IMG/VR virus record: IMGVR_UViG_3300023074_000002
Span: 1 to 61,219 of that record
Direction: 5' to 3' (one strand)
Source: a virus
Lineage: Duplodnaviria > Caudoviricetes
DNA: 61,219 nucleotides
The number at the start of each line of letters is the position of its first letter. Position 1 is the first letter of the stretch. Under the pieces are notes generated by a model. The model saw nothing but the letters and a program-made list of their open reading frames with translations. It was not told the DNA's origin and searched no databases. Positions 24,605 through 25,938 of the stretch are shown here, piece after piece. Position numbers and translations under genes: made by a program.

Positions 24605-24724
24605 TCCTAAAGATGCAACAAGAGGCCGTCATTAAATAAATAGAGAAGCAGATTGGTAGTAATGTTTCCAAAGACGGTATTGTTCTACCCCAGCGAGGCA
24701 GCGGACAGTCGGAAAGACGATAAA

Positions 24725-24831
24725 GGTTAACGTAGCTCAATTGGTAGAGCGGCTCGGAATGCAGTTCGAATCTGTTTACAGTTTTGGTAACTCTGGGCAA
24801 TGATGTGGATTCGACCTCCACCGTTAATCCA
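24725..24831 (+). ncRNA. tRNA-like RNA with the anticodon loop replaced by a 33-nt insert
   Basis: Acceptor GGTTAACG/CGTTAATC, D-arm GCTC-AATTGGTA-GAGC, T-arm GTGGA-TTCGACC-TCCAC, stem GCTCGGA/TCTGGGC. Confidence 0.75.
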
Positions 24832-24845
24832 AATTCAGTAAAACA

Positions 24846-25060
24846 AGGCAGTAAAAAAATGATAGCGAAAGCTAAAGTAAAAAGTATTGCCTAAAAAGTC
24901 GGACGGACTATAACGACACTTGCCAAAGGATAAATGGAACGTGAGTAACCTACGGACGTAAAAGGTGCTGGATAAGCTAATAGCAGACCAAAAGTAAAAC
25001 GATACATGCCGCTTTGATTAGTGTTGGCTGCGTTATTAAAGGGCGTATTGTTGCGCCTCA
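24846..25060 (+). ncRNA. Candidate structured RNA(s), unknown class
   Basis: AGGCAGTA/TATTGCCT around TAGC-GAAA-GCTA; ATAACG..ACACT/AGTGT..CGTTAT; GGGCGTA/TGCGCCT. Confidence 0.4.
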
Positions 25061-25109
25061 CAAAATTAAAGTACACTATTACAACAACAGGCGAAAGCCT
25101 TTAAGAATA

Positions 25110-25345
25110 TGAAAGTTGTTTGACGATTATTTGTGCCTTTGTTCGGACGCGGGTTCGATGCCCGCCGCCTCCACAATGTAGCCTATGGTTGCAGTATTGC
25201 CGCCTCCCTTGAGTAAGGAGGCATACGGGGGCGAATGGTTTTGACGGCAAAGTGTAGGGTAATAATAGACTTTCAGAAAGCCATAAACGGCAACTCAATA
25301 CAATTTCAACCAGCCGTTGCTTTTAAAGCAGCCGCTTAGTTGACG
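25110..25345 (+). ncRNA. ssrA: Circularly permuted (two-piece) tmRNA
   Basis: Acceptor piece ~25110-25173 (GAC-GCGGG-TTCGATG-CCCGC-CGCCTCC-A) precedes the coding piece starting GGGGGCG-AATGGTTTTGAC at 25227; G3:U70 and A73; tag ORF 25289-25339. Confidence 0.9.
25289..25339 (+). other. tmRNA tag reading frame (A)GNSIQFQPAVAFKAAA*
   Basis: ATAAAC precedes the GGC resume codon; C-terminal Ala-Ala degron, TAG stop. Confidence 0.85.
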
Positions 25346-25351
25346 AAACTT

Positions 25352-25378
25352 GCCCCCTGCGACAATGGGGGCTTTTTT
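25352..25378 (+). terminator. Intrinsic terminator after the tmRNA
   Basis: GCCCCC-N9-GGGGGC-TTTTTT. Confidence 0.85.
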
Positions 25379-25417
25379 ATTATCAAAATTAAGGCGAAAG
25401 CCTTTTAAAATAAATAA

Positions 25418-25665
25418 CAGTTGTAACTACATTATCCCTTGTGCTGTATCTGAACGGCTGGGTTAGGCAAAGTAAAGATGATTTCTGCGTTACAACTGCG
25501 TGTCGTGTGATACTTGGTCAGCTAATCTTTATATCAGGGTTGGGTACGTTTCCAGAAACGCCTTTTAAAATAGACGGCAGTAACTAAGAGTTAGACCATA
25601 GCGATAATGGCTGCCGTCCAATTTAAACCACAATTATTAGCCATGTAGTTATCGCTGGAGCCTAC
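25418..25665 (+). ncRNA. Candidate structured RNAs with loop-loop pairings
   Basis: 10-bp stem CAGTTGTAAC/GTTACAACTG; three-way junction closed by GACGGCAG/CTGCCGTC; AGCGATAA/TTATCGCT. Confidence 0.5.
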
Positions 25666-25834
25666 GATTGGGCAAAGAAATGCAATCATGTTACGAGAGT
25701 AGATAAATAAGACGAAAGTAAATCCTGCGGTCGGCGCGAAAGAATCAATCCCTGTAAGGTGTATGGGTACAAGGGCAAAACAGCCTGCTAAATTTTGTCA
25801 CTTATGAAAAAGTAATCTTAGAGTTTGAAAATCG

Positions 25835-25866
25835 AAAAAGGGGCAGCAATCATGTTGCCTCTTTTT
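25835..25866 (+). terminator. Intrinsic terminator closing the RNA island
   Basis: AAAAAGGGGCAGCA-ATCA-TGTTGCCTCTTTTT. Confidence 0.75.
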
Positions 25867-25938
25867 AATGCAGCACATTTTGTCCCAAGCCAAAATTAAA
25901 AATGCAGAGGGTTTTATTCACAATTAAAAATTATTGAA

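Follow-up and report, generated by a model that had tools for sequence, protein, structure and literature searches.

A mosaic cluster of RNA genes in a tailed phage, with repeated hairpin junctions, a two-piece tmRNA and a probable compact twister ribozyme

What separates the units of a phage RNA-gene cluster from one another, and do the separators act on the RNA, on transcription or on the exchange of genes between phages? This question is raised by a 1,334-nt stretch (24605-25938, hereafter the island) in the IMG/VR virus record IMGVR_UViG_3300023074_000002, which is rated complete and was analysed over its whole length of 61,219 bp (the window). A preliminary description had read the island as a polycistronic small-RNA array whose repeated hairpin spacer acts as a processing or 5′-stabilizing signal or as a recombination point for swapping RNA cassettes. 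In a crude map of open reading frames (ORFs; 107 ORFs, 30 gaps of more than 60 nt), the island is the longest ORF-free gap, as that description had claimed, and the runner-up measures 638 nt (22877-23514). The sole ATG-started ORF of at least 25 aa on its plus strand is the tag frame of a transfer-messenger RNA (tmRNA). From left to right, the island holds a tRNA-like gene, RNA unit C, a permuted tmRNA, RNA units G and I, a hairpin ending in U5 and a putative twister ribozyme core. These observations support a cluster of RNA genes over coding sequence. The window also encodes a portal protein, a large terminase subunit and a tape-measure protein (protein family scan), and the record therefore represents a tailed phage with a long tail; a blastn search with 24300-26300 found no close relative among 50,697 deposited phage records.

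The three junctions between the RNA units lie exactly where the preliminary description had placed them, each a small hairpin followed by a tail of the form CCTTT(T)AA..ATA. A fourth, junction-like module precedes unit C (Table 1), and a hairpin-less copy of the tail occupies 24633-24647. Allowing at most one mismatch, the 13-mer GCCTTTWAARATA occurs eight times in the window against 1.41 ± 1.08 times in shuffled sequence, with none of 100 shuffles reaching eight, and three of the eight copies fall within 480 nt of one another in the island. The distinctive feature is this local clustering of near-identical junction copies. In a modelled transcript the tails are among the most accessible segments, with unpaired probabilities of 0.81, 0.82, 0.55 and 0.72 against an island mean of 0.44. 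Two further observations concern the junctions. A four-codon mini-ORF (ATG AAA GTT GTT TGA, 25109-25123) starts on the last base of the junction 1 tail, where the tmRNA acceptor piece has its 5′ end; in the relatives X3 and X7, described below, a change at 25119 alters its fourth codon and the frame stays open. On the minus strand of an unrelated viral contig (L005), the same GNRA hairpin with TTTAAAAATAA occurs at 5619-5638, and a second GC hairpin with the same tail at 6030-6060, both copies directly before the ATG of a protein gene.

The preliminary description had expected variable cassettes and conserved spacers in related phages, and the relatives bear this out. They are Logan contigs of at least 80% likeness from four metagenome runs labelled leaf litter and soil, X3, X7 and X8 being among these runs. 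A 57,977-nt contig of X3 keeps 24584-24604, carries 167 other letters in place of 24605-24820, keeps 24821-25376 with 32 differences and 6 gaps, and diverges after the tmRNA terminator. X7 contributes contigs that span 24881-25131 and 25110-25377, one of which resumes its match over 25529-25560 before it runs into other sequence. In X8, one contig keeps 24715-24899 (the tRNA-like gene and the fourth module), diverging 13 nt after the module tail, and another keeps 25151-25379 and continues with the junction 2 hairpin. All three retain the last 21-32 nt (24573/24584-24604) of the 66-codon ORF to the left and diverge after its stop at 24604. Homology thus breaks at 24604, at about 24899, at 25376-25379 and at 25560/61, and three of these points lie no more than 15 nt from a junction. 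The relatives hold different subsets of units, while the junction hairpins are kept structurally, and of the roles first proposed for the spacer, that of a recombination point is the one best supported by the comparative data; these consist of contig pieces, and at one joint, in X7, the intervening letters (between 25377 and 25529) are unseen. Variable RNA content between close relatives is the pattern expected of host-adaptation or counter-defence cargo.

More distant sequences show other occupants of the same slot. In a locus whose version of the 136-aa flanking protein is 61% identical (L002), tRNA-Gly and tRNA-Glu genes stand directly before that gene, and another locus found through flanking proteins (L069) holds one tRNA. 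Relatives recovered with the flanking 136-aa protein (3 loci) and a 289-aa protein (15 loci) have no similarity to the island itself. Pattern scans of IMG/VR with a tmRNA 19-mer, a unit C 21-mer and a tRNA-like 21-mer returned 0 matches each, as did the unit C 21-mer in GTDB genomes. We also observed in L002 a sub-threshold match to the Y RNA-like family YrlA (7598-7696; 35.9 bits against 69) and four tRNA genes scattered among small ORFs.

The relatives further indicate which part of a junction is retained. In junction 1, X7 has the loop UAAG in place of GAAA, and a C-to-U change in X3 gives a G·U pair; in the fourth module of X3, three of the four stem pairs are altered on both sides with pairing retained, and UUUA replaces the GAAA loop. 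Behind hairpin 1, by contrast, the T-run becomes ATT or AAT in X3 and X7, and the sequences that follow the junction hairpins read ATTAAGAATA in X3, AATAAGAATA in X7 and ATTAAAAATA in X8. The TAAGAATA tail and the next 40 nt are unchanged in X3 and X7 except at position 25119. At junction 2, the hairpin is retained in X8 with the tail ATTAAAAATA, and X3 has the tail without the hairpin. At junction 3 in X7, homology stops after the hairpin and before the tail, and the different unit that follows has a tail of its own, AACAAAAATA. As read from these alignments, the junctions keep the hairpin as a structure and not the U-tract, and the A-rich tail is kept and goes with the downstream unit. A tail that travels in this way fits a unit promoter as well as a cleavage site, an ambiguity to which we return below.

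Table 1. Features of the island and its borders (positions in the window).
Feature	Position	Strand	Description
Promoter-like site, TTTG-N20-TAACTTTG	24338..24369	+	Bacteroidetes-type; intergenic, right orientation
66-codon ORF	24404..24604	+	No family found; stop codon is left border of variable island
tRNA-like gene	24726..24829	+	Acceptor stem, D arm, T arm; 49 nt replacing 17-nt anticodon arm
Fourth junction-like module	24863..24886	+	Hairpin UAGC-GAAA-GCUA (24863-24874) and A-rich tail AAGTAAAAAGTA
RNA unit C	24887..25088	+	No Rfam match at E ≤ 10; always accompanies tmRNA in relatives
Junction 1	25089-25100 (hairpin), tail to 25109	+	Tail TTTAAGAATA; GNRA loop; -5.6 kcal/mol
tmRNA acceptor piece	25110..25173	+	T arm 25149-25165, 3′ acceptor strand 25166-25172, discriminator A25173
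tmRNA intervening segment	25174..25226	+	One hairpin; between 3′ and 5′ acceptor strands; predicted to be removed on maturation
tmRNA coding piece	25227..25380	+	5′ acceptor strand 25227-25233, tag frame 25289-25339, terminator 25354-25380
Junction 2	25391-25404 (hairpin), tail to 25412	+	Hairpin AAGGC-GAAA-GCCTT; tail TTTTAAAATA; GNRA loop; -6.4 kcal/mol
RNA unit G	25413..25546	+	No Rfam match; 10-bp stem 25418-25427/25489-25498
Junction 3	25547-25560 (hairpin), 25561-25572 (tail)	+	Weak hairpin CGTTT-CCAG-AAACG; tail CCTTTTAAAATA
RNA unit I	25573..25834	+	No family; 8-bp stem 25573-25580/25612-25619
14-bp hairpin ending in U5	25835..25866	+	Terminator-like; occupies position of twister P0/P1
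Putative twister core	25862..25915	+	P1-type, P3-less; predicted cut U25866/A25867; RF03160 match overlapping U-run
136-aa ORF	25939..26349	+	No family found; 27 nt 3′ of ribozyme core; right border of RNA slot

Among the RNA units, the tmRNA is the best defined. Its presence had been recognized in the preliminary description, which overlooked its permutation, the tRNA-like gene and the twister core at the right end. The tmRNA scores 64.5 bits in RF04321, against a gathering score of 47, over model positions 1-213 (cmscan), whereas the clade-specific cyano tmRNA model gives only 41.3 against 70. ARAGORN labels it 'Permuted': the 5′ acceptor strand and the tag frame come after the T arm and the 3′ acceptor strand. 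The two acceptor strands pair over 7 bp and include the G3·U70 pair (G25229·U25170). The tag frame encodes GNSIQFQPAVAFKAAA followed by a stop, with a resume codon and an Ala-Ala end; its designation by ARAGORN as 'not identified' means that it is absent from the tags known to that program. A compensatory change from C-G to U-A in the T stem (25150/25164) is present in X3 and X7. Reading the tmRNA piece as an attP remnant was rejected: both halves, the tag frame and the compensatory change are all present. No SmpB was found among the 50 window proteins scanned. A tmRNA 18-mer matched metagenome contigs at 59 loci, only two of which hold a tmRNA (L025 and L046), one-piece in both cases, and one genome match (L080/G001) likewise holds a one-piece tmRNA. 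The one-piece bacterial tmRNAs at L025:6338-6687, L046:4266-4616 and L081 (G001:C36:198-550) share a 21-22-nt 5′ end with the phage tmRNA; those of L025 and L046, whose tags are ANNSYALAA and ANNSFALAA, also share 31-32 of 32-33 T-arm and acceptor bases and nothing between.

Upstream, the tRNA-like gene matches the Rfam tRNA model (RF00005) in a cmscan alignment that skips the anticodon arm, at 37.3 bits where the gathering score is 29. Its cloverleaf arms are present in the minimum free energy fold, one arm being long, and the gene is about 90% conserved in the X8 contig. ARAGORN finds no tRNA under default settings and, with the intron option, an unconvincing Asn(gtt) model with a 16-nt insert. 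The 5-bp anticodon stem, 7-nt loop and readable anticodon of a decoding tRNA are missing, so we file the gene as tRNA-like.

The remaining units are characterized by their conservation and by the families that they do not match. In unit C, no X3 difference is listed within 24881-24992 and the changes concentrate in the flanking hairpins; of unit I, only 25636-25706 recurs, in an X7 contig with a different context. No hammerhead, pistol, hatchet, hepatitis delta virus (HDV)-like, 6S, riboswitch or Y-RNA model matched the island at E ≤ 10 in Rfam. A likeness of the hairpin with UUAAAAUAG to a pistol linker was dropped, since Rfam gives no pistol match and the pseudoknot of that ribozyme cannot be made with a GNRA loop. 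The sequence differences among the three hairpins led us to reject an RNA anti-CRISPR (repeat mimic), and a screen for RNA-RNA duplexes between units gave long non-specific duplexes only. Two short repeats were also observed. The sequence ACGAnACnTGCC is present in three direct copies, two in unit C (24913-24924 and 24999-25010) and one just before the tmRNA terminator (25343-25354). The sequence CAAAATTAA occurs three times on the plus strand of the island (25061-25069, 25384-25392 and 25891-25899) and nine times in the window, where 4.3 are expected; on the minus strand its complement gives rise to TAATTTTG, a -7 motif of the Bacteroidetes type, at 25068, 25391 and 25898, and these copies could be antisense promoters or a by-product of A-rich sequence.

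The island ends in what is probably a compact twister ribozyme. All conserved loop nucleotides are present, namely UAA at 25866-25868, GC at 25873-74, GUCCCAAGCC at 25882-25891 and GAGGG at 25907-25911, and the complementarity for pseudoknots T1 and T2 (the GUCCCAAGCC loop and the GAGGG strand) can be read by eye. P2 (25869-72/25903-06, UGCA/UGCA) has four of four pairs, and P4 (25877-82/25891-96) has three of three next to the loop and 6 bp in the fold, all A-U except the closing G-C. P1 has 0 bp; the U-run 5′ of the predicted cut finds its partner in the A-run at the base of the hairpin upstream. The core scores 36.5 bits in RF03160 (E of 8.5e-6 on 2 kb and 2.6e-4 on the whole window), short of the gathering score of 67.2. 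A descriptor built from the window and the Rfam consensus, and hence a search biased by that pattern, retrieved 30 viral contigs, which with the window give 34 twister instances and 25 distinct cores, seven of them P3-less. P4 pairs three of three in 20 of the 25 distinct cores, with 16 pair combinations, and P2 four of four in 24. P3-less cores in the other viral contigs score 44.2-58 bits, against 68.1 for a P3-bearing core; a sub-threshold score is to be expected, since these P3-less cores also fall short. Nor is the missing P1 peculiar to the window: P1 measures 0-1 bp in nine of the 33 other matches, including L097, L102, L103, L104, L109, L111, L112 and one of three in L115. P1-less 'mini-twisters' are able to cleave. 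P3 is optional in twister ribozymes and present in 78% (PMC6154101). The surroundings recur as well, with a stable hairpin ending no more than 8 nt before the predicted cut in 23 of 27 flank-distinct instances and an ATG no more than 45 nt downstream in 20 of the 27, the window, with its 27 nt, being included in both counts.

Some of the contigs examined for twisters hold several ribozymes hundreds to thousands of nucleotides apart: three type II hammerheads and a twister in L091:1961-6867, two P1-type twisters and one P5-type in L114:320-3190, and two twisters in L107:4379-9951. These series look like ribozyme punctuation of gene arrays. In L090:10823-10902 and L096:6186-6265, a tRNA to which ARAGORN assigns a four-base anticodon (gaag) starts 10 nt after the twister core, with a tRNA-Ser about 300 nt upstream; this tRNA may be quadruplet-reading or otherwise odd, and may be released by the ribozyme.

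Signals outside the island bear on how it might be transcribed. The 30 nt 5′ of the 107 crudely called ORFs are A-rich and almost never contain a Shine-Dalgarno sequence. Bacteroidetes promoters follow the consensus TTTG, 17-23 nt, TAnnTTTG. Full matches (TTTG-N17-23-TAnnTTTG) number 15 in the window (pattern scan); those that are intergenic and correctly oriented lie at 24338-24369, at 55118 and, on the minus strand, at 23444, and another motif of this type (23944-23975) falls within a doubtful 45-codon ORF directly after a terminator. The short -7 motif is weakly enriched before genes (7 against 3.9 expected in 44 upstream regions), and one DUF3127 protein of the window is nearest a protein cluster whose recorded members are mostly Bacteroidota. 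Phage protein similarity gave no informative host signal. The promoter motifs, the A-rich leaders without Shine-Dalgarno sequences and the DUF3127 cluster together make a Bacteroidota host probable, not proven. The consensus promoter of the preliminary description has to be recast in these terms: no sigma-70-type site was found just upstream of the island, and the candidate is the Bacteroidetes-type site before the 66-codon ORF, which is likely to be the start of the transcript entering the island. The island, which we place in the early/middle region of the phage, adjoins genes for a KilA-N domain protein (22250-22876, minus strand) and an Arc-like repressor (24137-24325, plus strand), which flank the 638-nt divergent control region, and an HNH endonuclease with a resolvase-type helix-turn-helix is encoded near the right end of the window (59807-60508, plus strand).

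Starting from the parts, their conservation pattern and the mosaic, we infer a scheme of transcription, cutting and protection, which we prefer tentatively and at somewhat less than an even chance. In it, the junctions would be RNA-level punctuation, combining a 3′ hairpin cap with a cut in an A-rich linker, the last cut being made by a ribozyme, and would be recombination joints as well. Transcription would enter from the host-type promoter, pass through the 66-codon ORF and proceed into the RNA units, every one of which would end in a small hairpin, the single-stranded A-rich linker (..TAARAATA..) that follows belonging to the next unit. Host endoribonucleases would cut the precursor within these accessible linkers; the tRNA-like gene and both tmRNA pieces would additionally be trimmed by tRNA-processing enzymes; and the hairpin at each new 3′ end would shield the RNA from exonucleases. 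The last junction would be cut after U25866 by the compact twister core, which would be docked on the closing hairpin-U5; this cut would free the RNA array with a hairpin-U5 end and release the downstream mRNA with a 5′-OH end. The junctions might also be joints for unit exchange between related phages, because short shared sequences stand at every unit border.

Several observations are consistent with processing, among them the accessible tails, the structurally retained hairpins with a T-run that is not kept, the recurrence of the hairpin, twister and gene-start layout in viral contigs, and the homology breaks near junctions. No TAnnTTTG motif was found on the plus strand between 24362 and 43317 (pattern scan), and hence none on the plus strand of the island, while such motifs mark other operon starts. 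The island RNAs, with a permuted tmRNA and a tRNA-like gene among them, need processing anyway. If the array does end in a twister core, RNA would be cut at at least one border.

Other observations weigh against this scheme. One is the canonical intrinsic terminator in the middle of the island (25354-25380), because of which units G and I would need read-through. It also qualifies two claims of the preliminary description: the island is closed by a terminator-like hairpin and U5, as stated, but the stronger-looking terminator lies inside, and what stands as an RNA-gene cluster is less likely to be a single simple polycistron. Known endonucleases have preferences less specific than the conserved TAARAATA tail, which moves with the downstream unit, as a promoter element would. 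Similar A-rich 8-mers number 56 in the window, 47 of which lie away from gene starts, and a loose genome-wide scan for a hairpin with an A-rich tail shows no enrichment (10 against 5.2 ± 2.5, with a shuffle maximum of 14). The junction 3 hairpin is not the minimum-energy fold of its 46-nt context, and the family-less units do not stand out in their folding z-scores, which run from -0.7 to -1.4, with +0.65 in unit I. The twister score is the lowest seen among the compared cores, and some of the relatives' contigs have a depth below 5.

The behaviour of the tail also suits the main rival explanation, which is a real possibility although a rather unlikely one. Each junction would resemble a promoter early stem-loop (PeSL), with the stem-loop attenuating upstream transcription and a -10-type element (TAAAAT or TAAGAAT) making each RNA unit its own small gene, and would double as a recombination site. 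The stem-loop of a T4-type PeSL is mostly located between the two promoter boxes (-35 and -10) or overlaps the second of them, and shuffled ORFan cassettes have PeSLs at their borders (PMC2839356, PMC4122927); the junctions appear to have the same geometry, each hairpin directly preceding a -10-like element, and some copies of the -10-type element are one mismatch from the T4 late box. The switch from variable to conserved sequence falls between hairpin and T-run on one side and tail on the other (25101/25102) in X3 and X7, X7 switches at 25560/61, and the new downstream units carry their own A-rich tail. Moreover, junction 2 follows the strong terminator, where re-initiation would be needed, and in other respects the tmRNA, which has a terminator of its own, is a gene complete in itself. 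However, the signals of this genome are of the Bacteroidota type (TTTG/TAnnTTTG), with none on the island plus strand, and no -35 element is conserved, 25077-25088 being the most variable stretch in the relatives. The A-rich motif stands 3-16 nt before nine start codons, too close for a promoter, and its other 47 copies are not near starts; the junction 3 tail ends 1 nt before an 8-bp stem; and a scan of 50 window proteins, most of them without any family, found no sigma factor or RNA polymerase. The role as recombination joint fits either this reading or processing.

It is distinctly unlikely that the junctions carry no dedicated signal and are leftovers of an ordinary gene-junction layout, a hairpin with an A-rich leader instead of a Shine-Dalgarno sequence, kept when RNA genes replaced protein genes, with the repeat reflecting shared ancestry or a recombination scar. 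The same layout does precede protein genes (CCCCTTTAAAAATAAATT-ATG at 28584, and twice in L005), A-rich leaders precede most of the 107 ORFs, and the single L005 match to the 20-mer is estimated to be about what chance would give. Such leftovers would not readily account for three near-identical copies within 480 nt and a window count that no shuffle reaches, nor for hairpins that wobble, loop and compensatory changes leave intact, nor for tails that three relatives retain beside diverging flanks. Still less probable is that the hairpins, as weak intrinsic terminators or attenuators, set graded expression levels along the array. The hairpins are followed by 3-4 T in the window, and the genome's real terminators also precede A-rich leaders, but the junction stems are of 4-5 bp (-5.6 and -6.4 kcal/mol), against 6-14-bp stems with T5-T7 at clear terminators, and the T-run is replaced by A in X3, X7 and X8; a T-run that is not kept argues that the junctions are therefore not terminators. 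Small proteins, encoded for example in a 38/61-codon minus-strand frame (24891-25076) or a 48-codon frame (25441-25587), are hardly credible: the minus-strand frame does span a stretch without a listed X3 difference, its lone substitution (24993) is synonymous and a TAATTTTG motif lies upstream on that strand at 25068, but the 48-aa frame (a GTG ORF) has no homologue, the 61-aa frame matches only five long repeat proteins (566-2108 aa) in multiple short stretches with no Pfam family and no small-protein relatives, changes in the relatives cluster in hairpins with pairing kept and not at third positions, and the hairpin around 24847-24891 has a G·U pair that would be a C·A mismatch on the minus strand.

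The most far-reaching reading would be that cassettes of A-rich 5′ tail, RNA and 3′ hairpin shuffle as an array between soil phages, sealed by a P1- and P3-less twister variant docked on a terminator-like hairpin and including a two-piece tmRNA in a Bacteroidota phage; we consider it unlikely that all of this holds together. If it did, the cassettes would parallel, for RNA genes, the modular shuffling that PeSLs mediate, one and the same RNA 3′ end would arise from termination and from ribozyme cleavage, and a two-piece tmRNA in a Bacteroidota phage would imply independent permutation or transfer across phyla. Clusters of small RNAs in phages are usually read as tRNA supplements. The island is without a canonical tRNA; a ribosome-rescue RNA stands in it beside a tRNA mimic, three structured RNAs of no known family and a putative ribozyme, and its content varies between close relatives. 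Junctions that were portable processing or expression signals would explain how RNA genes can be exchanged without disturbing their neighbours and would be compact parts for multi-RNA expression in Bacteroidota. The layout of hairpin, twister and gene start also suggests a testable role for bacterial twisters, that of uncoupling an upstream RNA from a downstream mRNA.

Stable-RNA clusters of phages are processed from polycistronic precursors, as in the tRNA region of phage T4 with its species 1 and 2 RNAs. Like that region, the island has small structured RNAs head to tail in one ORF-free stretch, and maturation by host RNases is proposed here; unlike it, the island is without a canonical tRNA and has a two-piece tmRNA, an internal terminator, repeated junctions and an apparent ribozyme at its end. 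With PeSLs, as PMC2839356 and PMC4122927 describe them, the junctions appear to share a short repeated intergenic stem-loop with an AT-rich -10-type element that flanks variable cassettes in a hyperplastic region and marks exchange points. They differ from the PeSLs of these reports in flanking RNA genes and not ORFans, in measuring about 22 nt against about 100 bp, in having no sigma-70 -35/-10 consensus, in the accompanying Bacteroidota-type signals and in a T-run that is not conserved. The window core resembles type P1 twisters (RF03160; PMC6154101) in its U-A cut site, P2, P4, GUCCCAAGCC L4 loop and GAGGG strand, and departs from the type described there in the absence of P3 and of a canonical P1, the score below the gathering cut-off and the A-U-rich P4. 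The HDV-like theta ribozymes next to phage tRNAs (PMC10879173) are likewise small self-cleaving RNAs at the border of phage RNA genes, where they presumably define an RNA end; they belong to another ribozyme class, and the core here stands between an RNA array and an mRNA.

The two-piece tmRNAs of the Methylophilales phage Melnitz and pelagimyophages (PMC9004378) and of RF04321 (PMC11915505) are, like the present one, permuted, with G3·U70, a T arm, an Ala-Ala tag and their own terminator. Of the 53 phage two-piece tmRNAs counted in PMC9004378, 50 come from marine or aquatic phages, and the bacterial ones are described for Alpha- and Betaproteobacteria and Cyanobacteria (PMC11915505, PMC9004378). 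Compared with those described in these sources, the tmRNA of the island differs in its relatives from runs labelled leaf litter and soil and in its Bacteroidota-type signals, has no pseudoknot region after the tag and is always linked to the upstream unit C. A two-piece tmRNA in a phage with such signals lies outside the range described there, and such cases might already be tabulated. Phage RNA-gene clusters, twister ribozymes, PeSLs and phage two-piece tmRNAs are thus each already known; what appears to be new is their combination, an RNA-gene version of the repeated junction, a putative P1- and P3-less twister docked on a terminator-like hairpin, and an aberrant tRNA-like gene.

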